Positions 9,591 through 43,007 are shown, counted from the first letter of the stretch. The stretch: 52,518 bases of DNA from an uncultured Methanosarcinales archaeon (GCA_964647565.1 CAZYIM010000018.1:1-52518); one strand, 5' to 3'. Notes: generated from the letters alone by a model not told the origin. Numbers and translations: made by a program.

Positions 9591-9716
9591 GATTTCGGAA
9601 GGTTTCTGGTTGAGATAAAGTAATAGTTTTCTATTGTTGTTAGTTACTCAGAAGTAGTAAACTAACGAAAGATTTAAAAATAGTGACCCGTATCCCAGTC
9701 TAAATAAGGCGATATC

Positions 9717-10590
9717 ATGAATAATCCCCATACTACAGATGATTTCGACGATTTCCTAAACGAACTGGGCAATGTTGAACAGAAGAAGGCAGATCAATTT
9801 GATGATGGCCTATCAATACTCTATGATTTCTGGGCAAACCACTATAACAAGCTTGTTGAAAAGTTCACAACAGTAAACAATCTTTTTGATAAGATAGCAA
9901 GCAAAGTTTCCGGCTGGCACCATGTCCCTATGAAACATAAGAAACCAGACCACAACTGGTCAATACTTGATGATCGATACTGGCAACCAACACACACAAG
10001 AAGGTATAGGTTATACGATGCGCAGGACTCCAGAAGGCATATGCTTCTATGAACAAATTGCATATAACGGTGAAGATAAGGCGCCACATCCCTGTAAATA
10101 TAAGAATAAAGCTCTGACCATTGCTATCGGTCAAAGGTTCTGCAGCTTCGGAGAACATAAGAATGATAGCTATCCTCCAACTGCAGAAAGCGTTATTGGA
10201 GGTATCGGCCATGAAGAAGATCTTGGAAACCAGCCGTATGATGAAGATGCCTATAAGGACGGCAAGCTTTTAGGACTTGATGCATATTCAGAAAACACTC
10301 GTCTGAGACTCGCCGAAGGCGTACTTGACATGAATCAAAAGCTTCTTGATTGTAATCTGCTTTTCGAACTCTACAATGATAAAGTTGCTGAAGTACCATC
10401 AAGACTCCAAGTTCCCATCGGATCGATTATGAAAATTGATCTGGAAGGAATGGCCAAGCAGCTGTTCATGTGCTTGAATAAGAATGAACCCATTGATCTT
10501 GGTTCAACTGTCATAGCGCCAGAAGCTGCAATCGCTACAAACATCACAGGCTATCTTGATAAAAGCCCTGCTCAGCTCATCGGGAAGTAA
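9717..10590 (+). CDS. Hypothetical protein, probably one gene split into overlapping ORFs 9717-10052 and 9967-10590
   Basis: One promoter at about 9667-9680. The second ORF starts with TTG inside the first, and removing 1 nt near 9972 joins them. Confidence 0.45.
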
Positions 10591-10664
10591 AAAGAGTTTT
10601 AACAATAAGACTTCTACTCACGTCTATCTAAACTTTTATATATTTCCACCATTTTCTATTTCTT

Positions 10665-11186
10665 GTGAGGTTGAAAAGACTATATCAAAAGGTTTTGCCA
10701 ATAACCTTGTGTTCTTTTTTATTGGCAGCTCCTGTTCTGGTCAATATGGCCTGTTCCAGGGATAAGACTATCAATTCGCCTCAATATGATCCACAACAAT
10801 ACAATACAGTGGTCTATACTGGCCAATTGGTGCAGATCAATCCAAACAAAAGTTTCTATGCTATCACTCTTAAGAGTGATAGTGGTTCTATGACCCTTGA
10901 AAGGACTGTAAAAAGCAGCGCTGTAACTCTTGAGGAAAAGCTGATAGGCACGTGGATGGGCGGCATGGGCACAGACGACTATCCATCAAGCCATATAGAG
11001 ACCTGGAAACTGGAACTGTTGGAAAACAGAAATGCAGTATATTCAGAAGAGATTGGCCACGAAGAGTTTGAAGGCGGGGTGCAAGGCAACCCTACCATCT
11101 ATGTGATTGATGAGAACAAAGGTCCTTATCGGGGCACATGGAATCCCATTGAGCCGGACAGTGTTAAAGTAAAGTTGCATTTCTGA
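10665..11186 (+). CDS. Putative lipoprotein / exported protein
   Basis: Basic N-terminus, hydrophobic stretch, lipobox-like VNMAC. Confidence 0.55.
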   Translation: MRLKRLYQKVLPITLCSFLLAAPVLVNMACSRDKTINSPQYDPQQYNTVVYTGQLVQINPNKSFYAITLKSDSGSMTLERTVKSSAVTLEEKLIGTWMGGMGTDDYPSSHIETWKLELLENRNAVYSEEIGHEEFEGGVQGNPTIYVIDENKGPYRGTWNPIEPDSVKVKLHF

Positions 11187-11211
11187 GATAGTGTTGTGAA
11201 GCTTTAAATAA

Positions 11212-12423
11212 TCAATATTCCATACCCACACTCTCAGATGATTTTTCCAAAGAAGGTTGTGGGCTCTTTTCTTCATACCAATAAGGATCGTTTTCCTTCA
11301 CATTGTAGATGATCAGGTCGCCTGTAGAAGAAGCTGCCTTTGAAGAGTGCAGTCTGAGCATGACTTCGTACTTGTTGGCAGGATTTACGCCCAGGATTTC
11401 CATCTTGCCTAGCTGTGTCGACATGGCATATCTTGGCTTATGAAGACCTGTCATCATCTGTGTCAATTGATTGAAGATATCAATCCCTTGCTTCAGTGTG
11501 AGTTGCATATCCTTTGATCCAATCACCGGCCTGCACTGGAATAAATAATAGGGCCGAACACCGTACTTGGCCATTTTCTCAAACAGTTGGTATAACACCA
11601 GCGGATCGTCATTTATGCCCTTGAGCAGGACAGTCTGGTTGTAGAGTTCGATTGAGTATTTTCGCATAAGCTTAAGAGAGGCTATGCATTCAGCAGTCAT
11701 TTCCCTGGGATGCTCAAAATGCACACAGACATGTACACTCTTGCCAGTCTTTTTCTGGAAATCAAAAAGTATCTTACACAATGCCCTATCAATCCTGTGA
11801 GGATAGAACGCATGTATTTTCGATCCAAACCTCACAGTCCTTATATGTTTCAATTCAGGGTGGTCAAGCTCATCCAGGATAAGTTGAATCGACTTATTGT
11901 CAAGCATAAATGAATCTCCACCAGAAAGCAGGATCGTATTTATCTCCTTGTGGACTTTTAAGTAGGTGAGGGCTTTATCGTTCGGAAAAGTCTTATCATT
12001 TTCACTTGAACATCCATTGATGAATAATCTTTTCCTGAAACACTCCCTGCATAAGCTTGCACAGATATTACTGACAAGAGCAAGAGCTGTTGGACCGTAT
12101 TTATGCTGCAGGCCAGGCGCCTTCCAGTTGGTGTGCTCGCCGCTTGTATCCAAAGAGCCTGCATCTTCAGAATCCATCTCATCGTAGGTCTCGAGCTCTT
12201 TTTTTGTTGGTATAATCAGGGCTCTTATAGGATCGTTTAAATCTTCTGGATCTATCAAATCAGCATAATAGGAATTAGTAAGAATAGGGAAAGGTATGCC
12301 TCTGGCATTTTTATAGGCTGCAAGCTCATTAGTGCCCACAATTCTTCTTGATTCCAGTTGCTCAAGTGATGTAATCGAGCCTTTAAGTTTTACATATCTC
12401 GGCATATATTGCGTATTATTCAT
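11212..12423 (-). CDS. KamA-family radical SAM aminomutase (lysine 2,3-aminomutase-like)
   Basis: GLQHKY, CASLCRECFRK (CxxxCxxC), LLSGGD, HFEHPRE, NQTVLLKGIND, PYYLFQ, and GK at the PLP-lysine position. Confidence 0.9.
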   Translation of the reverse strand: MNNTQYMPRYVKLKGSITSLEQLESRRIVGTNELAAYKNARGIPFPILTNSYYADLIDPEDLNDPIRALIIPTKKELETYDEMDSEDAGSLDTSGEHTNWKAPGLQHKYGPTALALVSNICASLCRECFRKRLFINGCSSENDKTFPNDKALTYLKVHKEINTILLSGGDSFMLDNKSIQLILDELDHPELKHIRTVRFGSKIHAFYPHRIDRALCKILFDFQKKTGKSVHVCVHFEHPREMTAECIASLKLMRKYSIELYNQTVLLKGINDDPLVLYQLFEKMAKYGVRPYYLFQCRPVIGSKDMQLTLKQGIDIFNQLTQMMTGLHKPRYAMSTQLGKMEILGVNPANKYEVMLRLHSSKAASSTGDLIIYNVKENDPYWYEEKSPQPSLEKSSESVGMEY

Positions 12424-12426
12424 ATA

Positions 12427-12447
12427 ATTCCCCTTTTAAAGGAGAAT
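12427..12447. promoter_or_regulatory. Inverted repeat over the KamA ribosome-binding region
   Basis: ATTCCCCTTT-T-AAAGGAGAAT, arms match 9/10; contains AGGGGA on the minus strand a few nt before the ATG. Confidence 0.45.
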
Positions 12448-12530
12448 CAACTGACTTTTAAAAGAGTTTAGGTCATTATTTTTTAAAAAAGTCGGAAAAT
12501 ATTTAAATATAGTTCATATTTACATAATAA

Positions 12531-13523
12531 ATGGAGAAAAAATTTAAAAAAATCAATTTTGTAAACCTGGATAAACTTGATAAAAAAATCATAACCATAT
12601 TGGATCGTAATTCTAGATTGTCTGACACCAAGATAGGAAAGATCATCAGAAAAAGCCCTCAATTTGTCAGATATAGAATAAACCAACTGCTGAAAAATCA
12701 GGTTATCATAGGCAACAATGCAGTTATTGATTATTCCAAACTGGGCCTGAAAAAGTACAGGATCTATATCAAGCTCCAGAATGTATATCCTGCCATGGTC
12801 AAAGAGATAGCCAATTATTTTGCAGAGCAGGCAGCATCCAACTGGGTAACTGAGTTTTCAGGGTACTGGGACATAGGAGTTACTCTGCTGCTGCCAATAA
12901 CCAACGAATTCGCAGCCATCTGGCAGGATTTCAGACAAAAGTATAAGATCTTCATCCACAACTACAAAATGTCAATAGTCTATGAATATAACTTGTTCCC
13001 AAAACAGTTTCTTGATGTGGAAAAGCATGAAAAGATACCTATGACAATAAGCCAGTCAGAAGAAATCTTCAGGTTATCTGCCAAAGACAAACTGATACTC
13101 TATATTCTCAGCAAGAACGCAAGGATACATCTTATCGACATTGCAAGAGCAGTCAATATGACCTCAACAGGAGTAGCAGCGAGGATAAAGAACCTTGAAG
13201 AAAAGGGCATAATAATAGGATACAGGACCAATATAAGCTACAGACGCATCGGTTATGTGCTCTATCGGGTTGACATCATACTTGCTAACATGGACATAAA
13301 AGCCGAGCTGATTGCTTTCCTGGTTCAGATGAAATGTGTTTTTGAGACCCAAAGAACCTTTAATGGTGCAGATTTCGAGTTTGAGATCATCGTCAGCGGC
13401 GAGGCTTCGCTCAGGCGAATGATGAATAGGACACTCAGCCGATTCAAGGGGCAGATAAAGACTTTCCAGGCATACAGGGTAGTCAAGTTCTATAAATCAC
13501 AGTTCATGGTGGATTTGGTGTGA
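12531..13523 (+). CDS. Lrp/AsnC family regulator with two tandem HTH+RAM units
   Basis: LDKLDKKIITILDRNSR...YRINQL and second unit KDKLILYILSKNAR...ARIKNLEEKGII; divergent from KamA. Confidence 0.85.
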   Translation: MEKKFKKINFVNLDKLDKKIITILDRNSRLSDTKIGKIIRKSPQFVRYRINQLLKNQVIIGNNAVIDYSKLGLKKYRIYIKLQNVYPAMVKEIANYFAEQAASNWVTEFSGYWDIGVTLLLPITNEFAAIWQDFRQKYKIFIHNYKMSIVYEYNLFPKQFLDVEKHEKIPMTISQSEEIFRLSAKDKLILYILSKNARIHLIDIARAVNMTSTGVAARIKNLEEKGIIIGYRTNISYRRIGYVLYRVDIILANMDIKAELIAFLVQMKCVFETQRTFNGADFEFEIIVSGEASLRRMMNRTLSRFKGQIKTFQAYRVVKFYKSQFMVDLV

Positions 13524-13565
13524 TACTGATTAGTTGAAGTTTTATCGGAGAAATTGCGAGAAGAA

Positions 13566-14624
13566 TCAAATATCAGGAATAAATATATTCTTCACATAAT
13601 AACCTATGCCTTTTTCAGGCATCAGCATAGGGATGATGTATTGTTGCCATTCTTTTTCAGGTATCCAATCCCCTAATGTGCCATCCTCATGCCTGATATT
13701 GAAGTCATAGACCAAGCCCTGGTCATAAGCAATCCAATGAGTATGTGAATAGGCCTGGCTCCAGCCTGTCCAGCCATCGTGTTTGCCACGTGGACCCTTG
13801 AACTGTATGAAACCCAATCCCGCAGGTATATCACAAAAGGCCTTGCTGGGCAGCAGAGGTTCATCCTTGATCTTGATATTCTCGTGAGGCGCTCCAAAGG
13901 CTTCAAAGAGCTCTTGCATCGGAGTCAGTGAGATATAGTTTTTTTCCCGCCAGGTATGTGCCTTTTTAATCACCTCTGTGCAAGATAGATCCATGTAGGC
14001 AGCAAATGAACTAGGTCCACAGTTAGCCAAGGTCTGAAGAACATCATCTGGAAGGCCTCTTCCTTCAGGTATTCCTTTTAGTCTTTCTTCAATCTCCAAT
14101 TCATCTCTGTTCGGCACAAAATCAGGGCCCGCATAATACAGCTCATTATTGATAGGGCTAAAACCAAAACAGATGAAATAACCTCTATTTATATCATTAA
14201 GATTTGCCTGAAGCCGGATCGTGTTCCATGGCAGCCTTATATAATATAGGGAGAACTCATCTCTCATGGTTGGGTTACCTGGTAATTCAAAGGCATCTCC
14301 GTCATTGAACAATCCATATGGATCAGATTGTTTCTTATATTGAAGGCTGTTCACTTCCTTTTTGATATCTTGTTCCAATGACTTGTTTTTGGGTTCTTCT
14401 TCTAGTTTTTTCATCCTTACATTCAACCGCCGAAGAGTATCAGAAGCCACTAAAAGATCTGGATTTCGAATCCACTCAGATTTTTCAATCCGATGACAGA
14501 AATAAAGAATTCTTGGCTCAGAACCAGAAAGAAACTGATCCAGGTATGAAAAATCAGGGAAGCTCTGCCTCATATAGCCCAATTCAGAACCATCTAATGA
14601 TATCTCGAAGTTTGCCACCTGCAT
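13566..14624 (-). CDS. Hypothetical protein with C-terminal papain-like (C39-like) peptidase domain
   Basis: ANCGPSSFA ... THWIAY ... VYDFN gives a Cys-His-Asp order. Confidence 0.55.
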   Translation of the reverse strand: MQVANFEISLDGSELGYMRQSFPDFSYLDQFLSGSEPRILYFCHRIEKSEWIRNPDLLVASDTLRRLNVRMKKLEEEPKNKSLEQDIKKEVNSLQYKKQSDPYGLFNDGDAFELPGNPTMRDEFSLYYIRLPWNTIRLQANLNDINRGYFICFGFSPINNELYYAGPDFVPNRDELEIEERLKGIPEGRGLPDDVLQTLANCGPSSFAAYMDLSCTEVIKKAHTWREKNYISLTPMQELFEAFGAPHENIKIKDEPLLPSKAFCDIPAGLGFIQFKGPRGKHDGWTGWSQAYSHTHWIAYDQGLVYDFNIRHEDGTLGDWIPEKEWQQYIIPMLMPEKGIGYYVKNIFIPDI

Positions 14625-14688
14625 ACTAGCAGGAAAATATAACAGATATAAAAAGGTTTATCCGATTTTCTTTTAGAAAGCTTTAAAT

Positions 14689-14718
14689 AATACCATGTAT
14701 TACAATAGAATACTATGG
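14689..14718 (+). promoter_or_regulatory. Probable RHH operator: three TACNAT cores at 10-bp spacing
   Basis: TACCATG 14691, TACAATA 14701, TACTATG 14711, from just after the TATA box into the start codon. Confidence 0.5.
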
Positions 14719-14981
14719 ATGTTGTGACTGTCAAGTTCAAGGAAGATGTATTGAAAAAAGTCGATAAGAGCATCAGCGAGCATAACTTCAACTCAAGGAC
14801 TGAATTTATTCGGGAAGCTGTCAGGGACAAATTGGCTTCTTTGTCCCGGAACGACTTGATCAAAGAATTTCTTAAGTTTCAGGGTAAAGCCAAGAAGAAA
14901 ACCACCTATGCAGAAAACAGGAAGGTGCGTGAAGCAGTCAGTAAGGAACTGATGGCAAAATTGGATGAAAAGTTCAGTTGA
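14715..14981 (+). CDS. Ribbon-helix-helix (CopG-like) protein, probable antitoxin
   Basis: VVTVKF...LKKVD...NFNSRTEFIREAVRDKL. Confidence 0.85.
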   Translation: MDVVTVKFKEDVLKKVDKSISEHNFNSRTEFIREAVRDKLASLSRNDLIKEFLKFQGKAKKKTTYAENRKVREAVSKELMAKLDEKFS

Positions 14982-15393
14982 TACGTTCAGGCCTCACAGT
15001 TTTAGTAATGTCAGCGAGATCTTTGATTAAATGTTTATCTTGCGAGATTAGAATGGCTTTGTTGTTTCTGGCCTGGATTGCGTTCATGCAATCGACATAA
15101 GGAAGTTTTCTTTTTTTCGTTAGGTGTTTCGCTTCCAGATGTTCTTCCTTTGATATCTCTACTCTTATCAAAGAGCCAGTAATATATAATAGGTTCAACA
15201 TATCGTATATTTCATCTTTTTGATAATCTTTTTCTAGTTCCAAGATTAGTGATTGTGAAAATAATATCTTATCCTTGTTTTTAATGATCTTCAAAAACAG
15301 TTTGGCAGCTGCTTTGCCCAAATGTTTTCCTTTCTTACTGAACCGGTTCTCATAGAAATCCCTCCAGATGCAGGTGTCAAGATAATACTTCAT
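14974..15393 (-). CDS. PIN-domain (VapC-like) toxin
   Basis: YYLDTCIW, ILELE, PYVDCMNA, LISQDKHL. Confidence 0.85.
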   Translation of the reverse strand: MKYYLDTCIWRDFYENRFSKKGKHLGKAAAKLFLKIIKNKDKILFSQSLILELEKDYQKDEIYDMLNLLYITGSLIRVEISKEEHLEAKHLTKKRKLPYVDCMNAIQARNNKAILISQDKHLIKDLADITKTVRPERIN

Positions 15394-15489
15394 TTATAGT
15401 TAGTTGATGGATTGTTTAATATAGCTTATTGAGAAATTATTGAAGGATTTTCGAAGGGTTTAAATAATGCTATTGATTCTCTTTTTTTC

Positions 15490-15756
15490 ATGAAACTCGG
15501 GGCTGAGGATTCAATAAAATTAAAGGAGCTTGGTGAGCAGGCGTCAGATCTGTTGGTGGACATCATAGATGAAGAGCTGCCTGATTCTAAGGAACCTACT
15601 AAACTGGATGCAAAGTTTAACCAGGTCTTGACGCAGATATACCAAATCTGCCCATTGCTTTCTGATTCTTACAAGCTGATGTACAACCATGTCCAGATGG
15701 AAAAGAAAGAGGCTGGGCATACTTATGTAAAACAGCTGAAGCTAGGGGAGAAGTAG
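15490..15756 (+). CDS. Hypothetical protein
   Basis: 88-aa ORF after a BRE/TATA element (GAAGGGTTTAAATA). Confidence 0.6.
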   Translation: MKLGAEDSIKLKELGEQASDLLVDIIDEELPDSKEPTKLDAKFNQVLTQIYQICPLLSDSYKLMYNHVQMEKKEAGHTYVKQLKLGEK

Positions 15757-15836
15757 TAAGTTTTTCCGGTTTTTTCTTGTGAAGTCATTTAAAGCAGTTA
15801 TTTCTTTGTTAAGTTTTAGAAAAATTTAAATAAGAT

Positions 15837-15859: not shown

Positions 15860-15873
15860 TCTGGAGTATGTAA

Positions 15874-30407: not shown

Positions 30408-30662
30408 ATGTCAGTTGATTCTGAAATCCGAGAAGATGTTAAGCTTGAGATGGATTTGAATGAGGACCTGTCTGAAGCTATTGCTTTGGTTTTGAAACAG
30501 TATGATATAACTGGTACGTATATCTTTAATGTTAGACGGGATGCAGACTATGGTCATGATCCTATAACGCATATCAAAGGTAAGCAGTTGAAGATACCTG
30601 TTTATTGTATGGGCAGCGGTTATGCGACAGTGGAAGAGCCTCGGAAAGTTGGGCCGATTTGA
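30408..30662 (+). CDS. Hypothetical protein
   Basis: ATG 30408 with GGTGA ribosome-binding site. Confidence 0.55.
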   Translation: MSVDSEIREDVKLEMDLNEDLSEAIALVLKQYDITGTYIFNVRRDADYGHDPITHIKGKQLKIPVYCMGSGYATVEEPRKVGPI

Positions 30663-30805
30663 ATCGGAGATGTTTTGTTTTTTCTTGGTAAATGTTTTTT
30701 AAGGGATAGTTTTTACTGGATGATTATGTTTTTGACTGAAACAAAAAGAAATGCACGAAGCGGTTCTGGGCTTGGGAATGCAGGGTCTTCCGAAAAGTTT
30801 ATATA

Positions 30806-33871: not shown

Positions 33872-34240
33872 ATGACACGTTCACCAGGTACAAAACCAAT
33901 AGATGTCCCTAAAGCAAAAGAAAAGATCGGGTCGTCGATTGTTGCCTATGATGGGACCTTTGCCGAGATTATTTCAGTAAGTTATGATAGTAAGAACCGT
34001 GTTAAAACTAATTTTAAGATCCTGCCAGAAGGTTCAAAAAGAGCCAATGTCTGGGGTTCATTCCAGGGTTCAATTCCCGCTTCATATATAGGGCAGAAAA
34101 TAAAGTTCGAGCATAGGGTTGAGCCATATCTTTGGGGTTTAAGGGAGAGAGTGTCTCAGAAGTTTGATCTGGTTGACAATCAGAATCCTGCAGTCCCTGA
34201 CAACATCTATGCAGATTTTACACAAAAACGTACTAGATAA
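33872..34240 (+). CDS. Hypothetical protein; its 3' end is duplicated downstream
   Basis: 122-aa ORF after a BRE/TATA element (GGAAGATTTAAATA). Confidence 0.7.
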   Translation: MTRSPGTKPIDVPKAKEKIGSSIVAYDGTFAEIISVSYDSKNRVKTNFKILPEGSKRANVWGSFQGSIPASYIGQKIKFEHRVEPYLWGLRERVSQKFDLVDNQNPAVPDNIYADFTQKRTR

Positions 34241-34264
34241 TTTCTTGAGATTTTCGTAGATCTT
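34185..34264 (+). repeat. 80-bp direct repeat A, left copy (gene 3' end plus boundary motif)
   Basis: 73/80 identical to 36304-36383. Confidence 0.9.
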
Positions 34265-34308
34265 GTGGGAAAATGTATTTAACTAACTGTTAATTCTTAT
34301 TGTAGAAT

Positions 34309-35502
34309 TCAACGGCTTGTGGCAGCATTGTATATAGCATTAGCCTGCTTCACAGTCATCATGTCATTGATGCCGTTCTTTTCGAATCTTGCTGGTTCTT
34401 TTGACTCATCGAAAAGGTCTATTCCTGCTTTTTGTGCTAGAAGATCTATTGGTCCGCCTTTTCTGTATATGTTTCCTTGGCTTTCTGTTCCTTCTGATGT
34501 CAGATCATATATTCCTGTCAATCCTTGCTTATTTGCACTTGTTAAGAATTCTTGCTGAGTGAATTTGATCTCTGGTTCAGTTATTACTTCTTCTGCTTGT
34601 TGTGTTGTAGCCACAGGTACTGTTTGGTCAATTCCTTTTTTACCAGTATGGTATTTATAAAACATTATTGCTGATGTTATGAGTATTGCTGAAGCTGCAA
34701 CAATTCCTAGTGCTGCGCCTGCACGAATAAAGTAGTTTCGCTTGCTAGATTTCTGCTCTTTTTGCGGTTCAGTTTCGATTGGTGGAGTGGTAGTTATTTG
34801 AGGGATTGCAGCTGGCTTTTCTCGAAGGTTTTCAAATTTATAAGCAACAAATACTGATTGAGGCTGCTCTGGATAAATATCATCAAGACGTTCGTATACT
34901 GCGTTAGAACCATTTTTGAAAGTAAATAAGCCATCACGCATATATCCGACTTCTTTTTCTATATTTCCAGGAAATGTTACAGTCTTCGGAACCCTCAATC
35001 CCTCCCATTCAAACACAAACGTATCCATGCCCTTTAGAGTATACTCTTTGATTAATTTTTCAACTTTTGCATTATTTGCTTCAGCTCCAATAGGGATCTT
35101 AGTTTGGGATTCTGGGATCAATTCCCTTTTTATGCTTATTCCTGGTATGCGAAGAACTTCTTCTAGTGTTTTTAGAGGTTCCATTTGGTTTAAATGTACA
35201 GAAACTTGTTCCACGACCTGGTTGTCTGCAAGTTTGTACATTGCTGGTGTGCGTAGGTCAGGATCGAAATGCTCAAACATCATGGTTTCTGGATTGATAT
35301 TGCCCAGGTGCATGACTCCGTGTTGTGGAAGTAGTGCCATCATAGCATATTGGACTTGTTTGAACTTGTCTTGGACTGGTTTAGAAATGTGTGCGTAGAC
35401 TGACGCTGGACTTTTCGGGTATGGTCTGATTGCACCTGTTAGTTCCAATACTTTTTCTATCTGGACTGGTATTCTCATTGTTGGTTGTGGCCCTTTTGTC
35501 AT
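34309..35502 (-). CDS. Hypothetical single-pass membrane protein
   Basis: 397 aa; TM AGAALGIVAASAILITSAIMFY after a Pro/Thr linker. Confidence 0.75.
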   Translation of the reverse strand: MTKGPQPTMRIPVQIEKVLELTGAIRPYPKSPASVYAHISKPVQDKFKQVQYAMMALLPQHGVMHLGNINPETMMFEHFDPDLRTPAMYKLADNQVVEQVSVHLNQMEPLKTLEEVLRIPGISIKRELIPESQTKIPIGAEANNAKVEKLIKEYTLKGMDTFVFEWEGLRVPKTVTFPGNIEKEVGYMRDGLFTFKNGSNAVYERLDDIYPEQPQSVFVAYKFENLREKPAAIPQITTTPPIETEPQKEQKSSKRNYFIRAGAALGIVAASAILITSAIMFYKYHTGKKGIDQTVPVATTQQAEEVITEPEIKFTQQEFLTSANKQGLTGIYDLTSEGTESQGNIYRKGGPIDLLAQKAGIDLFDESKEPARFEKNGINDMMTVKQANAIYNAATSR

Positions 35503-35608
35503 AGGTGTGGGAATTAATTTATTCTTTATAAATCTTTTGCTATTTACTCTTGTTCAGTGGTAACGGGGGCGAAAGACTTATAAAGATGTACTAAATAATA
35601 TCATTCCT

Positions 35609-36241
35609 ATGCAGAACATCAATTTATTGGATTATCTTAAAAACTCTTGTAATGAGATACTTGATAGAAACCCGACTGCAAATATTGTAGTTGTAGGCCC
35701 TTCTACCCTTGATAAAGATCCGAGTCTTCTTTGTCTAAGTGAGATGTTGTCAAATACAAAGGCGAATTTAACAGCCATCGAATTTCCAAAAAGCAAATGT
35801 TATAGTGATATTGATCTTCTTAAAAGACAAATAGAAGAAGAATGTAGGAAAGATAAATCTCTAAATAGACCTAAATTTATTGAAACCTCGATATATTCAC
35901 TTGAGAATACATTGGACCAAGATTCAGTTGAAATGATTTATGATCATGCTTCCTTCTATTGGAGTGTTATAAGTTATAGAAATTCTAATGAATTCTCTGT
36001 GGAAGGATGTAATCGGTTGGCTAGAATATACAAGAAACTATGTTCTCCTGCCGGAAGAATCATCATAACAGAAACGTTTAATTCTTTTGAAGAGGGCGCA
36101 TGGAAGGATGGAATCATTGACAGTCTAAAAAAGTGCAGACTAGATATAGAATATTTCAGAATAAAAGATGTTTCGCCTAAATTCACGGAAGTTAATCATT
36201 ATCATTGTAAGACCATGGCAGTTGCATCAAAACCTCTCTAG
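35609..36241 (+). CDS. Divergent class I SAM-dependent methyltransferase-like protein
   Basis: IVVVGP, LTAIE, SVEMIY, L.PAGRIII Rossmann pattern. Confidence 0.5.
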   Translation: MQNINLLDYLKNSCNEILDRNPTANIVVVGPSTLDKDPSLLCLSEMLSNTKANLTAIEFPKSKCYSDIDLLKRQIEEECRKDKSLNRPKFIETSIYSLENTLDQDSVEMIYDHASFYWSVISYRNSNEFSVEGCNRLARIYKKLCSPAGRIIITETFNSFEEGAWKDGIIDSLKKCRLDIEYFRIKDVSPKFTEVNHYHCKTMAVASKPL

Positions 36242-36303
36242 TTATAAGCTTCTTCCAATCAGGACCAGCAACTATTCAACCAAGTGCCATCAAGGAAAAT
36301 AAG

Positions 36304-36383
36304 ATCTTGCAATCCCTGACAGCATCTATGCTGATTTTACACAAAAACGCACTAGATAAGTTCTTGAGATTATCGTAGATCTT
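36304..36383 (+). repeat. 80-bp direct repeat A, right copy (orphan gene-end remnant LAIPDSIYADFTQKRTR*)
   Basis: 73/80 identical to 34185-34264; no upstream start in frame nearby. Confidence 0.9.
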
Positions 36384-36469
36384 CCGGGGATTATTGGTTA
36401 TTTGGCTGGTTTAATTAAATAACAAGCTTTATAAAAAAAGGTGCTTAAGTGAATGACAAGAGGTGCGTA

Positions 36470-37060
36470 ATGAAGAAGACTGTTGTTCTGTTGGTTGTTG
36501 CTGTTTTGCTTTCAAGCATGGTTCTTGCGGTGAATTCTTTTGTGATTAGGTCTGATGAAGAGATAGATGTTTCCAGTCCTTCGTTCCTGGTTTCTTTTGG
36601 TGTTAAGTTGTTTAAGGCAGGCTATAAGACTGAAGCTCTGGACATGTTCAAGATGGCTTTGGGTTCAGAAAAAGTTAAGGCACTGAATAATATAGGAGTT
36701 TATTATATAGACCAGGGAGATAGTGAAACAGCGTTACAGATCTTTGAGAAGGTGCTTTCGATTGATGCTCAATCTGAGGTTGCTTTGGCTAATTCTGCAC
36801 TTATTCATAATGCCAATAAGGATTATTCTTTGGCTATAGTTCCTTTGAGGAAATTGGTTGAGATGTTTCCTGATAATATAATGTATAACTATGATCTTGG
36901 TGTGAATATTGGTTTGAATTTTAGGGAGAATGAAGAAGGGGATCTTTCTGAAGCTGTTGAATATTTTAGAAAGGCTGAGTCGTTGGAACCTGGCTATGAA
37001 CATGCTAAAGAGAATATAGAAGTTCTTACAGAGATAATTGGGCTGATGGAATTATCGTAA
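36470..37060 (+). CDS. Exported tetratricopeptide-repeat protein
   Basis: Signal peptide; ALNNIGVYY...ALQIFEKVL, YNYDLG...AVEYFRKAESLEP. Confidence 0.85.
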   Translation: MKKTVVLLVVAVLLSSMVLAVNSFVIRSDEEIDVSSPSFLVSFGVKLFKAGYKTEALDMFKMALGSEKVKALNNIGVYYIDQGDSETALQIFEKVLSIDAQSEVALANSALIHNANKDYSLAIVPLRKLVEMFPDNIMYNYDLGVNIGLNFRENEEGDLSEAVEYFRKAESLEPGYEHAKENIEVLTEIIGLMELS

Positions 37061-37080
37061 ATCTTCTGGAAATTCTTGGA
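37052..37080 (+). repeat. Boundary motif copy overlapping the TPR stop codon
   Basis: TTATCGTAAATCTTCTGG identical to the copies at 42193 and 42935. Confidence 0.8.
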
Positions 37081-37115
37081 TTAGTTATTTGAAGGGCTGA
37101 TTTATTGAAGTTTCT

Positions 37116-37439
37116 ATGAGTCTGGACATCTTGAAGAAAAGATTGAGAACTTATAGTAAGAAAGATATAAGGTTCAATGAGCCTCACTTCTCGAAGATGC
37201 TTATGTTAAGGGACGGTAGTGAGGAAGAAGTTATTGATTGTTTATTGAATCCTGTAAACCTTGTTTATTATTATACTGAAAAAGGTAAGTTTGGAGATAC
37301 TGTTTATTGCCTTCATTTCAAGATCAGTAATACCAGGACATTAAGATTGCCTGTGATCTTTTCCAAGAAAACTTTATATATCCTAACTATACTAACTTAC
37401 ATACCGAGGTATAGAAAATGGCAAAGCATGGTAAGATAG
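37116..37439 (+). CDS. Putative toxin (DUF4258/RelE-like fold)
   Basis: FNEPHF..ML..R...EEV...L.NP; directly upstream of and overlapping a DUF2283-like gene. Confidence 0.55.
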   Translation: MSLDILKKRLRTYSKKDIRFNEPHFSKMLMLRDGSEEEVIDCLLNPVNLVYYYTEKGKFGDTVYCLHFKISNTRTLRLPVIFSKKTLYILTILTYIPRYRKWQSMVR

Positions 37440-37756
37440 TCAGCTATGATGGTTTGAATGATATTTTTGTAATACATAAAGGATTTTCAGCAGATGAAAA
37501 GTTCAAGGGAAATATAGATGCAGGTGAACTGGTTCTGGATATCTCTACAAAAGGCAGGGTGAGAGGTGTTGAAATCATGCATGCCACTAGTTTCTTTAAA
37601 GATTTTTCAATACCTCAGAAAGTTTTAGAAAAAATAAAAGATGCACAATTCGATGTCAGTTCTAAGCCCAATTCGATTATTCTTAGTTTGATTATCAAAG
37701 GCGTTGAGAAGGAGTTTCCGGTGAAGGTTGCAGTCCCCTTGGAAGTCAGTTCTTGA
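37418..37756 (+). CDS. DUF2283-like protein, putative antitoxin
   Basis: YD..NDIF.I...LVLDI...G.V.GVEIMHATSF. Confidence 0.75.
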   Translation: MAKHGKIVSYDGLNDIFVIHKGFSADEKFKGNIDAGELVLDISTKGRVRGVEIMHATSFFKDFSIPQKVLEKIKDAQFDVSSKPNSIILSLIIKGVEKEFPVKVAVPLEVSS

Positions 37757-37792
37757 GAAAGGTTTAAATATTTCTTTGAATTTCTCGTTTAT

Positions 37793-38335
37793 ATGGATTT
37801 GGTTGAGAAATTAAGGACTTGTTCTATAGATAAAAGGAGAAGTGTTGCTGTAGAATTAGGTAAGACTAGAACTGATCAGGCTGTGTTGGAGTTACAGAAC
37901 ATGGTTGGAGGAGGGGTCAGAGATTATACAGACAGGACTTGCAGGACTCTTTGGTTTAAGAGAGCTATAAGATATACTGTTGAAGAGCAATACATAGCTG
38001 TTTCCGCACTTGGAGAGACAGGGAGAAAAGATGTTCTTGAGTATTTGAAGAAAATGTATACGCCTTCGGTACAGGTTGAAGACAGGGAGAGCCATACTGT
38101 GCAGGGAGTGGATGGTATTGATGATTATTGGAAGGCTGAGGTCTATAGATATCCTCACGCTCAGATAGTATTTGCACAGAACTTAAGGTACGAGGTTAAT
38201 CTGACCAGTTCTAGCTGGGGTGCTGAGACAGAAAGGACTCAGGATCTGATAGAGAAAGATCGGGAAAGAATTCTAAAAAGCAGGAAATCACATCAAGTGT
38301 TTAGGGCAGCGATAGAGAAGTTGGAGCAAGTTTAA
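37793..38335 (+). CDS. HEAT-repeat-like hypothetical protein
   Basis: RRSVAVELGK...AVLEL and AVSALGETG...LEYL. Confidence 0.6.
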   Translation: MDLVEKLRTCSIDKRRSVAVELGKTRTDQAVLELQNMVGGGVRDYTDRTCRTLWFKRAIRYTVEEQYIAVSALGETGRKDVLEYLKKMYTPSVQVEDRESHTVQGVDGIDDYWKAEVYRYPHAQIVFAQNLRYEVNLTSSSWGAETERTQDLIEKDRERILKSRKSHQVFRAAIEKLEQV

Positions 38336-38411
38336 TTCTTATTGGGTGTTTTTGAAAAAAGTTCACATTCAAAATAGAAATATTTATTAAAAAGCTCATT
38401 ATGATAGCTAT

Positions 38412-39413
38412 ATGCCAAAAAGGATATTAATTACAGGTGGATGTGGATTTTTAGGGCAATACTTAGTCAATGATTTGTTAAATAGGTTTAAAGATAGTTA
38501 CATCAGGATATTGGATCTTAGACCAAACACCCACCACATCTTCAATTTTAACGATAATTCTAGTGTTGAAATCTTATTAGATAAAGATATCTGTAATTAT
38601 GAATCTATTAAAGATGATTTTAAGGGTATTGATGTTGTTATACATCTTGCAGGCATAGTTTCGTTTTCTTTGAAGGATAAGGATCTATTGGAGAGAGTGA
38701 ATATTAACGGAACAAAAAATGTTATCAGGGCTGTTATGGCAAACAAAATCCAAAATTTCATCCATATTAGTTCTGTAGCCGCATTAGGATATAATGACGA
38801 TAAAGATGATCCTATCGAAGAAAATTTTAAGTTTGATTGGAGAATTGCACAGAGTAAGAAGAAATATTATATGCTAACAAAACACTTAGCTGATGTTGAA
38901 ATTGAGAAGTCCAAGAAATTGAATGCTGTAATTCTATATCCTGGCTTAATGTTCGGTCCTGGCGATATGAATAATTCTGCTAAGCTAATAAATGCGATGA
39001 AGGAAAAAAGAATCCCTTTCAATATGCCCGGAGGAACAAATATTATTGATGTGAGAGATGTTTCGGCAGGAATAACTGCGGTAGTTGAGCACAATTTAAA
39101 AAAAGGCCATTATCTATTATCTGGACATAACTTAAAATTTTCAGAAGTCAATCAGATTATTGCAGATGAAGTTGGCGTAAAACCTCCGAAAAAGACTCTG
39201 CCCAAATTTCTAAGTCCCATACTTTATAGAATGCTCCTGTTTGCTGAAACGTTATCGAGGAAGAAGATTCAACTTACAGCAGATAATATTGATTCAGCAT
39301 TCAAATTTAGATATTTTAATAATTCTAAGGCTAAGAAAACCTTAAGTTGGAGACCCAAGATCAATTTTAGAAAAACAGTAAAAGATACGGTTAGATGGTT
39401 AGATTCGAAATGA
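38412..39413 (+). CDS. NAD-dependent epimerase/dehydratase (extended SDR)
   Basis: ITGGCGFLG, VIHLAG, NINGT, HISSVAA, YMLTK, IDVRDV. Confidence 0.92.
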   Translation: MPKRILITGGCGFLGQYLVNDLLNRFKDSYIRILDLRPNTHHIFNFNDNSSVEILLDKDICNYESIKDDFKGIDVVIHLAGIVSFSLKDKDLLERVNINGTKNVIRAVMANKIQNFIHISSVAALGYNDDKDDPIEENFKFDWRIAQSKKKYYMLTKHLADVEIEKSKKLNAVILYPGLMFGPGDMNNSAKLINAMKEKRIPFNMPGGTNIIDVRDVSAGITAVVEHNLKKGHYLLSGHNLKFSEVNQIIADEVGVKPPKKTLPKFLSPILYRMLLFAETLSRKKIQLTADNIDSAFKFRYFNNSKAKKTLSWRPKINFRKTVKDTVRWLDSK

Positions 39414-40546
39414 GTGATGTTATTGTTCTGAAAACTAAGGAAGATCAAATAGAAGAGAACATAAATAAAATTTTCGAACTAGCCGGAGGGATTGATAAAT
39501 ATATCCAAAAGCAAGACAAGGTTTTGATTAAACCAAATTTTATTGTTCCAAAAACTTCTTCAACAGGCGTTACAACAGATAGCAGAATTATTGAAGCTGT
39601 TATAAAAATTATCTTAAAACAAGACGCCATTCCGATTATCGGTGAAGGCGTTCCATATTCTCATAACGCAGATGAAACATTTAGAAGATTGGGCATAGAT
39701 ACAATAGGAAAAAAATACAACATACAAATAACCAATATGGATAAATATATGCCTAAATCTGTGAAAATTAAAAATCCCATTGTTATAGCGGAGATTCCTA
39801 TTTCCAATCTGGTTTTTGAAGTTGATAAGATAATTAACTTGCCTGTCATGAAGACACATACTCAAACAACTGTAACATTGGGCATGAAAAACCTTAAAGG
39901 ATGTATTATTGGAAAAGAGAAATTAAGGCTACACCATCTAGGCTTGAGTGCGGGCATCGTTGATATAAATACTGTGATTAAACCAACATTCACTATTATT
40001 GACGGTATTATAGGTTTGGAAGGCAATGGTCCCACAAATGGAATTCCAAAAAGAATGGATTTATTATTGGGTTCTGATGATATTTTGGCATTGGAAATCA
40101 TAACTTCAAAGATCATGGGCTTTGATCCATATTCAATTAAGCACATTTATTTATCAAAGAATAAAAATATTGGAGAATATGATATTAAGAATATTGAAGT
40201 CATTGGAGCTAAAATTGAAGAAGTTCAGGATAAATTTTTATTGCCTGTATTAAAAATAAGCAAATGGTTCGGTCCTTTAATTTTGGGTCATATTTTGCCA
40301 TTTTTATCTAAATGCGGAATTGACATCAATAAGATCTCACAAAACTTTTTTAACTATCTTATGCCCTATCCTACGTTTAGAGGGAATTGCACAGGATGTG
40401 CAAAATGCATTAAGAATTGCCCTACCGGAGCCCTTAGTTTTAAAGGAAAGTCGCGTCTGGTTGTTGATAAGAATAAATGTATAAAATGTTATGTTTGTGA
40501 TGAAGTGTGCGTCCATAATAATATTCATATAAAGGGAAGAGATTGA
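39410..40546 (+). CDS. DUF362 protein with C-terminal 2x[4Fe-4S] domain
   Basis: VLIKPN, INLPVMKTH, LGMKNLKG, IIDGIIGLEGNGP; CxxCxxCxxxCP and CxxCxxCxxxC. Confidence 0.9.
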   Translation: MSDVIVLKTKEDQIEENINKIFELAGGIDKYIQKQDKVLIKPNFIVPKTSSTGVTTDSRIIEAVIKIILKQDAIPIIGEGVPYSHNADETFRRLGIDTIGKKYNIQITNMDKYMPKSVKIKNPIVIAEIPISNLVFEVDKIINLPVMKTHTQTTVTLGMKNLKGCIIGKEKLRLHHLGLSAGIVDINTVIKPTFTIIDGIIGLEGNGPTNGIPKRMDLLLGSDDILALEIITSKIMGFDPYSIKHIYLSKNKNIGEYDIKNIEVIGAKIEEVQDKFLLPVLKISKWFGPLILGHILPFLSKCGIDINKISQNFFNYLMPYPTFRGNCTGCAKCIKNCPTGALSFKGKSRLVVDKNKCIKCYVCDEVCVHNNIHIKGRD

Positions 40547-40618
40547 ATGTGTTCTAGGCAGACAGCCGAAGTCAGAATACCATAACATATTTAAAATCAA
40601 AAAATAATATGTCCTGTT

Positions 40619-42181
40619 ATGTTAAAAAAGCTGGTGTTTGTTTTATTAGTTGTGCTATTATCTTCTGTGGTTTTTGCTGAGCATCTGGAATGGTATGCTC
40701 AAACCGATTGTTATGAAAAATCACGGCCAAATATTGAGCATTGCCAGCAGCAGTATGAAAAGTTACGTAAAGCGCATTATGATGATTGTGTTAATCCCTC
40801 TAGTGATGATTGTTACCAATACTGCCAACAGTTCATTGATGCGCACAGATTGGAGTGTGAACAGAAATGCATGGATGAATTATCATTTGCGCATTTTAGA
40901 TATATGGACTGTTTGGAAGGGAAGGCAAGCTCATACAAAGGTGTTTATGATTATGATGAAGATTACGATCTGATTCCAATTGATGATAAACCAGTGTTCG
41001 ATGTCCAGACGCTGACTGACGATGGCTGGAAATGTTATGATGGGAATACAGGAAAAGAAAAACCTTGGAATGATTGCAATCCAGCTCCTTTAAATGGTTC
41101 CAGGGTAGCTGATTATGTAGTCGGAACTGTTAAATCCACTCAAGGGAAAGCAGAGATCCTGAGGCAAGGGTCTGTTGCACTTGTTACAACAGATCTAGAA
41201 TTGCATAAAGGAGATGTTATCCATACAGGAGGGGATGGAGGTATTGAGATTGCCACTGAAGACGGTATGGTCAAGCTTGGTACAAATACAACTGTTGAAT
41301 TTGTAGGTCTTGAGTTTGATCCTGTTCCAAGCCGTAGGATAAAACCTCCGCCAGAGGCTCCCTGGGCTCCAGATCCCGGGTCATTCAAATATGAAATAAA
41401 TAATACTGCCTTTTGGAAAGGGATTGCAGATGATTTGAAAAAACATGTTCCATCTATCTTAGATGCTTGTATTGCCAGTATTGTTGGTGTTCCAGACCCA
41501 CTGAATCCAGATATCCCGGTTCCCATCCCTGCTATCGATTGTTTCAGGAAGCCGATCTTGATTCTTGTTGATGGAAGCCTATGGACCAAGACCAAACCTC
41601 CGGCCAAATATCCTGCTAACTTTTCCAAGGAATCGATCATGACTCAAAGTGTTTTAATCAATCATATGGCTACAGAGTTCACTGTTGAAGTGGCTGATGA
41701 TGGCACAACCACTGTGACTACGCTGGATGGCAGCGTCTTAGTAACAGACCTGGCCAGCAGGAAGAATGTTGTGGTCGATGTAAATGAGCGGCTCACTGTG
41801 ACTTCAGAGCAAGTGCTGACTAAGATAGATCCTGAATCAATAGATAAATGGTGGATTCAATCTACTGACTTTCCAAAAAAAGAAATATTGTTGTTCTTTT
41901 CCACATTATTCCTGGTAACTATTGTTTTTGTCGGTTTGATTGCTTTGATTATCCGAAAAAAGACAACTGCTTGGGGTGTAACCAGCTTAATCTTTGGCAT
42001 TATCGGTATCTTGGTTTTTATTGCGCCATATTTTGGATTGCCTTTAAGTGTTGGCGCGATATGGTTTTCTAGGATACAGAAGAAAAAGAAACATACTAAT
42101 ATAATGACAGCAGGCTTTGTCTTAGGCATTATCGGCACTATTCTTAATGTACTTCTTGCAATAGTGTATTTTATGATGTAG
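40619..42181 (+). CDS. Surface/membrane protein with Cys-rich N-terminus, FecR-like beta domain and C-terminal TM helices
   Basis: Signal peptide; L.KGDVIHTG.DG...DG.VKLG.NT.V; TEFTVEV.DDG.T.VTTLDGSV; 3 C-terminal TMs. Confidence 0.75.
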   Translation: MLKKLVFVLLVVLLSSVVFAEHLEWYAQTDCYEKSRPNIEHCQQQYEKLRKAHYDDCVNPSSDDCYQYCQQFIDAHRLECEQKCMDELSFAHFRYMDCLEGKASSYKGVYDYDEDYDLIPIDDKPVFDVQTLTDDGWKCYDGNTGKEKPWNDCNPAPLNGSRVADYVVGTVKSTQGKAEILRQGSVALVTTDLELHKGDVIHTGGDGGIEIATEDGMVKLGTNTTVEFVGLEFDPVPSRRIKPPPEAPWAPDPGSFKYEINNTAFWKGIADDLKKHVPSILDACIASIVGVPDPLNPDIPVPIPAIDCFRKPILILVDGSLWTKTKPPAKYPANFSKESIMTQSVLINHMATEFTVEVADDGTTTVTTLDGSVLVTDLASRKNVVVDVNERLTVTSEQVLTKIDPESIDKWWIQSTDFPKKEILLFFSTLFLVTIVFVGLIALIIRKKTTAWGVTSLIFGIIGILVFIAPYFGLPLSVGAIWFSRIQKKKKHTNIMTAGFVLGIIGTILNVLLAIVYFMM

Positions 42182-42191
42182 CTGAAGGTTT

Positions 42192-42265
42192 GTTATCGTA
42201 AATCTTCTGGGAAATGTTGGGGTAGCTATTTTAATGTGCGGTTATAGATGTTAATATGACCGAAA
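42192..42265 (+). repeat. 74-bp direct repeat B, left copy
   Basis: 67/74 identical to 42934-43007; first 29 and last 24 nt identical. Confidence 0.9.
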
Positions 42266-42345
42266 CTAAAAAAATCAAAGATTTTTAGGCTTCGAAAATT
42301 TATATTTTCGAAAAGTTTAAATATCAGATGGTATCTATTGGTATC

Positions 42346-42591
42346 ATGAACACACAAATTAATTTAAGAATGTCGCCAAAATTACTTAGTTCAGTCAAAT
42401 CTTATAGTGAAGAGCACGGATATGGTTCGGTACAGGATTTTATTAAGGAAACTGTTAGGGAAAAATTGTTCGATGCGCCTGAAATAAGCAAAGAGGAATT
42501 GGCACTTGTAAAGAAATTAGTTGAAGTTAGTGAAAAGAAAAAACTATATGGAACTGAGAAAGAATTGTTTGATAAACTTCGGAGAAGATAA
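42346..42591 (+). CDS. Ribbon-helix-helix antitoxin
   Basis: QINLRM...GYGSVQDFIKETVREKL; start placed at ATG 42346. Confidence 0.85.
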   Translation: MNTQINLRMSPKLLSSVKSYSEEHGYGSVQDFIKETVREKLFDAPEISKEELALVKKLVEVSEKKKLYGTEKELFDKLRRR

Positions 42592-42593
42592 TT

Positions 42594-42890
42594 GTGGAAT
42601 ATGAAATTATTCCAACTAAGCTGTTTCTAGAACAAATTGATGATCTAAGTGATGAAGCTGCAAGATTAATTGAAGGTAAATTACGTTTAGTAAAAATAAA
42701 TCCATATAGATTTAAGCGTATTGAAGGATACAAATTATTTCTTTTTAGGATAAGGTTTGAAGATGAGAGAAAAGAAAAAAGAATAGTTTATCTTGTTGAT
42801 AAACCAAAAGTAAAAGTTCTTTGTATTTTAGATCGGAGTGGTGAGTATAAACAACTTAGGAAGTTCTTAAAAAGATATGGTTATCTTTGA
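42594..42890 (+). CDS. RelE/ParE-family toxin
   Basis: YEIIPT..FLEQI..L...NPYRFK...FRIRF...RIVY.V. Confidence 0.8.
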   Translation: MEYEIIPTKLFLEQIDDLSDEAARLIEGKLRLVKINPYRFKRIEGYKLFLFRIRFEDERKEKRIVYLVDKPKVKVLCILDRSGEYKQLRKFLKRYGYL

Positions 42891-42933
42891 TTTATGGCTC
42901 TTTCCTCTTTTAATTATTGCATATAACATCGGG

Positions 42934-43007
42934 GTTATCGTAAATCTTCTGGGAAATGTTGGATTAAATATTTTAATGTAGGATTATAGATGTTAATATG
43001 ACCGAAA
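42934..43007 (+). repeat. 74-bp direct repeat B, right copy
   Basis: 67/74 identical to 42192-42265. Confidence 0.9.

Follow-up and report, generated by a model that had tools for sequence, protein, structure and literature searches.

Archaeal activators that bind upstream activating sequences recruit TBP or TFB (PMC11705074), and the sequences known from Ptr2 of Methanocaldococcus jannaschii and from TFB-RF1 and HhpR of Pyrococcus are among the closest described counterparts of a short motif in the window, that is, the whole stretch of 52,518 nucleotides that was analysed. As in those systems, a short and partly symmetric box stands at a fixed distance upstream of BRE/TATA and the promoters have modest TATA boxes, TBP/TFB recruitment being the mechanism described there (PMC11705074). 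Unlike those activators, the factor of the box in the window is putative, and the consensus of the box, TCGKAAATCYTCYGGAAA, had no match in the literature searched. Inverted GGAA/TTCC half-sites are shared with the NrpR operator of methanogens, GGAA-N6-TTCC, which overlaps the promoter and represses; unlike there, the spacing is 3 instead of 6 and the box lies upstream of BRE/TATA. The GGAA-N3-TTCC core may also resemble the 5-3-5 palindromes of Lrp/AsnC-type sites.

The attC sites of integrons are defined by an imperfect inverted repeat (R''-L'' ... L'-R') that as single-stranded DNA folds into a hairpin, by an R' box of the form GTTRRRY at the cassette junction with RYYYAAC at the opposite end, and by the integrase IntI. 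With archaeal integrons the locus shares a variable region in which small genes end in co-oriented repeats, several of these repeats being neighbours of toxin-antitoxin pairs (Ghaly et al., 2022, PMC9668308). In contrast to attC, the box has neither an imperfect hairpin nor R''/R' boxes nor an integron integrase, it conserves sequence and not structure, and its distance to the TATA box is fixed. Promoters reused before unrelated genes in prokaryotes form a further point of comparison (Nijveen, Matus-Garcia and van Passel, 2012, PMC3575422): as in that study, highly similar upstream regions precede non-homologous genes, namely in modules C, D and E described below and at 42261-42327 of the window and C2:33193-33259, and upstream regions are common to several taxa. 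Those reused promoters are near-identical, whereas the copies here have diverged and only core and spacing are kept across genomes.

The sequence-only reading of the window had reported a co-oriented 15-nt imperfect palindrome at seven places, taken to mark gene and cassette ends, and all seven strings are present on the plus strand where it placed them. In the strict form, TCGTARATCTTNNGG, five copies were found in the window, all on the plus strand and spanning 34254-42952 (expected number 0.00 from 100 shuffles), and these copies, named A to E, are also the only matches in the 2.68-Mb assembly, with none on the reverse strand and none for the control. They comprise two local repeat pairs and one single copy, and only about 28 nt are common to all. 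A weight matrix of 21 nt derived from copies A to E and scanned over the genome gives them 31-34 bits, the next-best genome match scoring 19.9 and 148 matches above 10 bits forming a continuum; the looser pattern of the earlier reading has 22 genome matches, 15 of which lie outside the window. Five of the seven reported sites hold up, while the two degenerate ones belong to the background: the site at 9595..9609 (plus strand) falls outside the family with a matrix score of -1.0, that at 13545..13559 (plus strand; 13.7 bits, rank 26) is indistinguishable from chance, and neither is matched by nhmmer profiles. An ATG at +61 of the latter opens just 34 codons, antisense to the gene at 13566-14624.

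The window copies show the reported symmetry only weakly (TCGTAA / CCAGAA); it is clearer in the form found in relatives, TCGGAAATCTTCCGG, which includes GGAA-N3-TTCC. A perfect-palindrome model, TCGGAA-N3-TTCCGA with up to two mismatches, proved too loose, with 130 genome matches and a small TATA peak at +31/32 (4 matches). Assignment to the dispersed repeats (REP or MITE), which have many copies across a genome and terminal inverted repeats or a palindrome, was rejected, since strict copies number just five, all within 8.7 kb, no hairpin is present and a search of the window at Rfam gathering thresholds gave no match. Also rejected were a coding origin (hydrophobic peptide IVNLL...), as the motif has no constant frame with respect to the genes before it and, in the common frame, a stop stands just upstream, and small flanking inverted repeats, GATAA-N10-TTATC, which are out of register among the copies. 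A 28-mer scan of metagenome contigs returned 0 matches, and an 18-mer scan of genome contigs yielded at least 118 single matches in unrelated bacteria, roughly the chance number for 596 Gb.

The features that follow are all on the plus strand. Copy A (core box 34254..34268), the most diverged copy, starts 14 nt past the stop of the ORF at 33872-34240, lies between convergent genes, is followed by no plus-strand gene and is probably a relic. It lies in the left copy of a type I repeat (34175..34269), made up of the 3' end of gene 33872-34240 and the core; the right copy (36295..36388) contains a gene relic at 36304-36359, the last 57 nt of a homologue of that gene, and the core of copy B (36373..36387). 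Copy B lacks a TATA-like box at +31, and the gene after it, with its ATG at 36470, comes with a TATA of its own (36428) and a Shine-Dalgarno-like GAGGTG, so that copy B is probably a decayed module. Copy C, TCGTAAATCTTCTGG (37055..37069), overlaps the stop of the TPR gene at 36449-37060, whose TAA lies inside the motif, and belongs to promoter module C (37052..37119), in which the TATA-like TTATTTGA occupies 37085-37092 (core +30) and is followed by an ATG at 37116 (core +61); this ATG begins a 107-aa gene succeeded by a DUF2283 gene, a putative toxin-antitoxin pair. Copy D (42196..42210) lies 15 nt past the stop of the gene at 40619-42181, and its module (42192..42265) carries TATTTTAA at 42227-42234 (core +31) and an ATG at 42256 (core +60) that opens 10 codons only, after which come another promoter, which contains a palindrome (42261-42327), and a RelE-like toxin-antitoxin pair (42328-42890). 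Copy E (42938..42952), 48 nt past the stop of the toxin gene at 42594-42890, belongs to module E (42934..43007), where the same TATTTTAA occupies 42969-42976 (core +31) and the ATG lies at 42998 (core +60); this ATG starts a VapB-like antitoxin frame of 71 aa, and DUF2683 and YafQ/RelE-type toxin genes come next, up to 43757.

Several claims of the earlier reading are borne out by this layout. Four copies do sit inside long direct repeats (34175-34264 against 36295-36383, 89%; 42192-42265 against 42934-43007, 91%), and three copies (37055, 42196 and 42938) precede toxin-antitoxin modules, the family match for 37055 (DUF2283) being in the second gene only. The asserted closeness to stop codons applies to four of the five copies, which start -5 to +48 nt from a co-oriented stop, and fails for the copy at 36373, which lies 132 nt past the nearest intact ORF, yet 14 nt past the stop of the truncated relic. 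Over 68-74 nt, modules C, D and E show 77-91% likeness, and they precede different genes; their first 18 nt are identical and for the remainder the likeness is about 70%. From the core, which is all that the two repeat types share, type I extends leftwards and type II rightwards. A strongly diverged sixth module, F, may lie at 30661..30755 before a MazE-PIN pair (ATG 30838), with 61% identity to module C over 51 nt and a likeness to module D that goes on beyond the ATG. Its membership of the family is weak, because the score of its core, TCGGAGATGTTTTGT, is lower than background.

The placement of these copies can be compared with the promoter geometry of the genome. Upstream of 1993 long ORFs, TATA-like 8-mers peak at -30/-31 of the first ATG (119 and 73 matches, against a background of about 5 per position), a sharp genome-wide peak which indicates that leaderless promoters are common in this genome. 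In copies C, D and E the motif stands 30-31 nt ahead of a TATA-like box and 60-61 nt ahead of an ATG; this geometry matches the genome-wide peak and hence indicates leaderless promoters. In a genome scan with a core-only matrix derived from copies A to E, three of the nine best other matches had a TATA-like word at +29..33, compared with 0.6% of 200,000 random places, and four of the nine had an ATG at +61..63. Among genome sites with up to two mismatches from the consensus, 7 of 38 have a TATA word at +29..33, and every one of those seven has an ATG at +60..63. A profile built from copies C, D and E alone picks up C7:18324-18270 (E=0.0017); this member and that at C11:20245 lie between divergent genes, with no co-oriented gene upstream. 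The class is small: matrix matches above 8 bits at -65..-59 occur in just 5 of 727 strictly defined leaderless promoters (7 such matches overall), and in an unbiased 6-mer enrichment over these 727 promoters the motif is not among the enriched words. For the site at C21:27834 and for copies A and B, no gene stands at a suitable place downstream, and these three would have to be relics or the starts of transcripts that lack annotation.

Across 150 genomes of the same order the core has 14 matches in 13 genomes, against 3 for a reversed-pattern control, and an ATG follows at +60..62 in six of the 14 and in none of the control matches; three further matches are intergenic with a TATA-like box near +30. 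Additional cases of the box geometry were found in G233 and G287 and in G425, G167 and G204. The matches come from many families of the order, with a single match to a genome, and in the relatives the box stands before ordinary non-cassette genes, always 31 nt ahead of a TATA-like box. A TATA-like box at +29..33 together with an ATG at +60..63 is seen in this genome and in relatives, with 0 cases among reversed-pattern controls, and the box is conserved before non-homologous genes in different lineages. The downstream genes are mutually unrelated and include toxin-antitoxin pairs (MazE-PIN, RelE-like, VapB/YafQ), PLD, HNH and LAGLIDADG nucleases, lamin-tail-domain proteins, secreted proteins, small membrane proteins and an ORF6N protein. 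In an alignment of 24 instances the information resides in the core, in a second patch at +22..28 and in the TATA position, and the spacers differ. MNT antitoxin genes contain two core-like sites that code for L-x-x-L-x-E-K-I, which implies that some matches are coding coincidences, and part of the cross-genome likeness could stem from horizontal transfer of accessory genes together with their promoters. A small sample of 47 genomes from other orders of the class gave no strict match.

The reading we favour, with somewhat better than even confidence, is that the 15-nt motif forms the core of an undescribed promoter-upstream box, which would define a small class of leaderless promoters. Counted from the start codons of leaderless genes, the box spans about -61 to -47, and 31 nt separate its first base from the TATA box; its orientation is constant, its window copies lie within repeated intergenic modules of 70-90 nt, and unrelated genes are preceded by it both here and in further families of the order. 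It is probably the binding site of a conserved transcription factor, we infer, and the putative factor, most likely an activator, would help TBP/TFB onto rather weak TATA boxes, in the manner of archaeal upstream activating sequences. In the small marine archaeon of the window and its relatives we find it rather probable that the motif is a promoter box multiplied before several toxin-antitoxin pairs and not a cassette recombination site: the window copies may have multiplied when toxin-antitoxin cassettes were duplicated or exchanged together with their promoter module, as in promoter reuse, and copies A and B would remain as relics of these events. The earlier interpretation is supported in part, as its dimeric protein site is compatible with a box held at a fixed TATA distance and conserved across genomes, while its recombination core finds no support. 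A tentative extension, on balance doubtful, would make the box the operator of an order-wide regulon in DPANN-type archaea, with one factor switching on selfish and defence-type leaderless promoters. If so, joint control would cover surface proteins with a lamin-tail domain, nucleases of the HNH, LAGLIDADG and PLD types and toxin-antitoxin pairs from no fewer than five families, and the toxin-antitoxin modules of one genome would have a common input besides their own autoregulation. DPANN-type archaea cannot be cultured alone, and to our knowledge almost nothing is known about their gene regulation. A conserved box in leaderless promoters would offer a concrete handle on it: the box predicts transcription starts, may serve as bait for its factor and delimits a small, putatively co-regulated gene set of toxin-antitoxin pairs, nucleases and surface proteins. 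Gene-end repeats in compact genomes can be promoter parts and not recombination sites, which matters when 'cassette arrays' are deduced from nothing but sequence.

An alternative is that a good leaderless promoter of 40-70 nt travels among genomes of the order with accessory or selfish genes and without any dedicated factor, in which case its conservation would reflect recent transfer and not selection on a site. Modules C, D and E combine, within one genome, a homologous upstream region with non-homologous genes; the downstream genes are mostly accessory or selfish (toxin-antitoxin; HNH, LAGLIDADG and PLD nucleases; the ORF6N protein), one member sits on a 15-kb contig that also bears an integrase, and G104 and copy D have similar spacers. 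Most relatives, however, keep only core, spacing and TATA position with unlike spacers, a pattern of site constraint and not of recent common descent, and the dispersal of single matches over many families of the order also speaks against such transfer, which we regard as unlikely. A still less probable view is that the five copies are functionless leftovers of segmental duplications, two or three in number, in an interval of 8.7 kb; the confinement of every strict copy to that interval, the 89-91% identity of the A/B and D/E pairs and the want of a matching gene downstream of A and B fit it. Against it stand the identity of the first 18 nt in C, D and E, with about 70% likeness elsewhere in the module, and the recurrence of the same core and geometry on other contigs and in other genomes. 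For the core this view is largely contradicted by the data from relatives and would survive only for copies A and B. The sequence-only reading had named a terminator as an alternative, and the proximity of the core to stops, with an adjoining stop also at C41:11277, at C21:27834 and in G287, would fit a terminator or transcript 3'-end signal of the upstream gene. This we regard as very improbable: neither a G+C-rich hairpin nor a T run is present in or after the core, the members at C7:18319 and C11:20245 have a divergent upstream gene and hence none to terminate, and what is constant is the distance to the downstream TATA and ATG, not that to the upstream stop (-5 to +132). The closeness to upstream stops probably follows from tight gene packing, the previous gene ending just ahead of the box and the box being the outermost promoter element.

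A promoter-upstream box also has to be set against the proposal that the core serves a site-specific recombinase as its crossover point, or acts as a landing pad, for integron-like insertion of toxin-antitoxin and other cassettes. That the two repeat types have just the core in common speaks for it, as do the direct-repeat pairs A/B and D/E, which flank inserts of 2.0 kb and 0.67 kb, the latter a whole toxin-antitoxin pair whose own promoter resembles the one on contig C2. At 34104 and 37008, moreover, co-occurring variant contigs part from the window, and 37008 is only 47 nt ahead of copy C; these breakpoints nevertheless miss the core, and the 30-nt flanks of both loose ends are absent from the assembly. 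For the five copies and both strands, ten folds of 121 nt had z-scores of -1.47 to +0.29, with no hairpin better than shuffled sequence and no structure common to the copies, and a GTTRRRY/RYYYAAC pair was not seen around the five copies, of which D and E alone begin GTTATCG, incompatible with GTTRRRY, and which have no conserved RYYYAAC upstream. In the genome, which is 87% complete, the best integron-integrase match (TIGR02249) reaches 129.7 bits against a cut-off of 265 and is split between profile positions 1-182 and 237-314, the integron-specific insert missing. No recombinase gene lies in the window, NCBIfam and PHROGs give no recombinase or transposase for the neighbouring genes without known function, and Logan contigs of four public runs never join two copies, a weak absence at a depth of 1-5x. 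Recombination would not predict a box before single ordinary genes at a fixed TATA distance, as observed in the relatives, where it is equally common with no link to breakpoints, a pattern that the sequence-only reading had itself set against its cassette-boundary element. We accordingly give this proposal, like that of functionless leftovers, little credence.

Eight DNA runs from two studies, with no RNA run among them, are listed as holding the locus. The arrangement of the window is present in the Logan contigs of the four runs, and other loose ends among these contigs, at 42310-42807, are short pieces.

All seven strings listed in the sequence-only reading were found at their positions in the window, and a pattern search for the strict core, the repeated 15-nt motif TCGTARATCTTNNGG, retained five of them, all on the plus strand: copies A (34254), B (36373), C (37055), D (42196) and E (42938), against an expectation of 0.00 from shuffles. 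None was found in the rest of the assembly (2.68 Mb, 86 contigs, 87% complete), of which the window makes up contig C18 in full. A 21-nt weight matrix made from these copies and run over the genome scored them at 31-34 bits, while the best other genomic site reached 19.9 bits. The sites at 9595 and 13545, which had been put forward as degenerate family members, scored -1.0 and 13.7 bits (rank 26), respectively, and were not recovered by nhmmer profiles, and thus have to be considered background matches to a pattern widened post hoc; the loose pattern of that reading has 22 matches across the genome.

The core copies sit within longer repeats of two kinds, which overlap only in about 28 nt around the core. 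Type I (34175-34264 and 36295-36383, 89% identity) comprises a gene 3' end followed by the core, on the left the last 57 nt of the gene at 33872-34240 and on the right the truncated remnant of a gene of this kind (36304-36359). Copies A and B are probably what is left, in decayed form, after a duplication that took the end of gene 33872-34240 with it. Type II (37052-37119, 42192-42265 and 42934-43007, 77-91% alike) extends from the core to the aligned ATG. A strongly diverged sixth module may be located ahead of a MazE-PIN pair at 30661-30755, its core scoring below background in the matrix. The window also holds an 80-nt direct repeat unrelated to the motif family (46506-46585 and 49992-50071, 99% identical), which follows the stops of the plus-strand genes 45958-46500 and 49131-49982 and includes a short CTGGG...CCCAG inverted repeat, as well as three tandem minus-strand paralogues of 267, 323 and 343 aa (2186-4995, 68-72% DNA identity) for which no family match was found.

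In the source genome, TATA-like 8-mers cluster at -30/-31 of start codons (119 and 73 matches vs about 5 per position elsewhere, 1993 long ORFs), indicating that many genes are leaderless. A separate Shine-Dalgarno-like peak is present genome-wide at about -11 to -9, and together the two peaks suggest a genome in which leaderless first genes coexist with genes that are leadered or internal to operons. Counted from the core start, plus-strand copies D and E are followed by the TATA-like TATTTTAA at +31 and an ATG at +60, and copy C, on the same strand, by TTATTTGA at +30 and an ATG at +61. At copy C the ATG starts a 107-aa gene that forms a pair with a DUF2283 gene. At copy D it opens a relic of 10 codons, behind which stands a RelE-like pair that has its own promoter, and at copy E it opens a VapB-like antitoxin frame, with DUF2683 and YafQ/RelE-type genes after it. 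When the genome was scanned with the core alone, leaving out TATA information, three of the nine best matches besides copies A-E carried a TATA word at +29..33 (background 0.6% of 200,000 random places) and four an ATG at +61..63. Among 38 sites with at most two mismatches from TCGKAAATCYTCYGG, seven have the TATA word at +29..33, and all seven of those an ATG at +60..63. A profile built from copies C, D and E only recovers C7:18324-18270 (E=0.0017) and copy B (E=0.033).

Members of this box, the promoter-upstream element built on the core, precede diverse genes on other contigs of the source genome. On the minus strand they stand before 82-aa and 114-aa genes (C7:18319), MazE plus PIN (C11:20245), a 22-aa frame and small genes without assigned function (C41:11277) and a 55-aa frame and an FG-GAP protein (C24:32670), and on the plus strand before a 44-aa frame (C1:136324). 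Since C7:18319 and C11:20245 are located between divergent genes, no co-oriented stop codon precedes either. At C21:27834 box and TATA word are present with no gene downstream. A weak minus-strand member with three mismatches (TATA word at +29..33, ATG at +61) precedes an HNH-like 163-aa gene (C48:9341-9832), which may be part of an integrated element; this 15-kb contig also encodes a tyrosine recombinase/integrase (C48:11547-12347).

The relatives compared belong to other families of the same order (genomes of 0.6-2.3 Mb). The core has 14 matches in 13 of 150 same-order genomes, vs 3 for the reversed pattern. An ATG at +60..62 follows six of the core matches, vs 0 in the control and a rough chance estimate of ~0.8. 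Three of the remaining eight lie between genes and have a TATA-like box near +30, ahead of an ORF6N-PLD gene (genome G078), MazE-PIN (G104) and a LAGLIDADG gene (G109); four others of the eight lie in or next to coding sequence without a TATA-like box. A longer core pattern added two promoters with an ATG at +61 (G233, G287) and five coding matches. In a 200-genome sample, five matches all fell among the 153 same-order genomes (control 0; one of them, G020, was also recovered in a separate search), and none among the 47 genomes of other orders. In G055, which accounts for the last of the eight, the core lies within an MNT gene ahead of a HEPN gene. There (L171) it codes for L-V-N-L-L-E-K-I, and a core-like site in the source genome (C11:16865; L146 301-315), which is probably a coding coincidence, codes for I-L-E-T-L-P-E-K-I in an MNT (nucleotidyltransferase) antitoxin gene; both stand shortly upstream of a HepT/HEPN toxin gene, and such sites could be either coincidental or an internal promoter of the toxin gene. 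The genes behind the box in relatives are mutually unrelated and include two lamin-tail-domain proteins, a PLD-type lipoprotein, a membrane-anchored OB-fold protein, small membrane proteins and a 95-aa protein. Anchored alignment of 24 instances yields information peaks at the core (TCGKAAATCTTCCGGAAA), a weaker patch at +22..28 and the TATA position, with mostly unlike spacers.

A fixed distance and orientation to TATA and ATG, before unrelated genes and in several families of the order, fits a cis-regulatory box; neither a recombination site nor a terminator, nor neutral duplicates, would be expected to show such geometry. The proposal that the motif is a cassette boundary or recombination core is not supported by this geometry, nor was a hairpin detected at copies A-E (ten folds, both strands, none better than shuffled, z -1.5 to +0.3) or a match in Rfam. 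The window encodes no recombinase, and a search for an integron integrase in the source genome gave as best tyrosine recombinase one of 129.7 bits (cut-off 265), its integron-specific stretch unmatched. What is left of the cassette idea is that homologous exchange may use the repeated promoter modules as passive substrates. The region around the core copies is a mosaic, A/B and D/E stand as direct repeats on both sides of inserts, and contigs from four public marine/seawater runs (two studies) match the window as far as 34104, or only from 37008 onward, the remainder being unrelated and absent from the assembly, which implies that a co-occurring variant differs across the stretch with copies A and B. 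However, these breakpoints are not on the core, and no contig joining two core copies was found in the public runs, where coverage is thin (1-5x).

The box is a predicted binding site of a conserved transcription factor. With its centre near -54, the box is placed upstream of BRE/TATA, and the TATA boxes that follow are often modest, which makes an activator recruiting TBP or TFB the more likely type for this putative factor; PMC11705074 includes descriptions of such archaeal activators. The many window copies are best explained as one promoter module reused before different toxin-antitoxin cassettes, and PMC3575422 describes promoter reuse. A second case adjoins copy D, where 42261-42327 and C2:33193-33259 (67 nt, 85% identical) share a palindrome around the TATA box (CGAAAATTTATATTTTCG) before unrelated small genes. 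The position of the box near upstream stop codons follows from gene packing, as it is the outermost promoter element. A literature search on leaderless/TATA promoters in DPANN, which led to two reviews, gave no description of the box, and one for TTCCGGAA in archaea returned nothing relevant; from the literature searched, it would be a previously undescribed archaeal promoter-upstream element, in a group with essentially unstudied regulation. That toxin-antitoxin, nuclease and surface genes share one regulon throughout the order is a bolder and rather doubtful reading. Among 727 candidate leaderless promoters of the source genome, ACCACT (26 vs 1 in a control stretch), AGTGGT, GTGGTA and AACCAC are strongly enriched upstream of TATA at -70..-42, which points to a putative further, commoner upstream motif.
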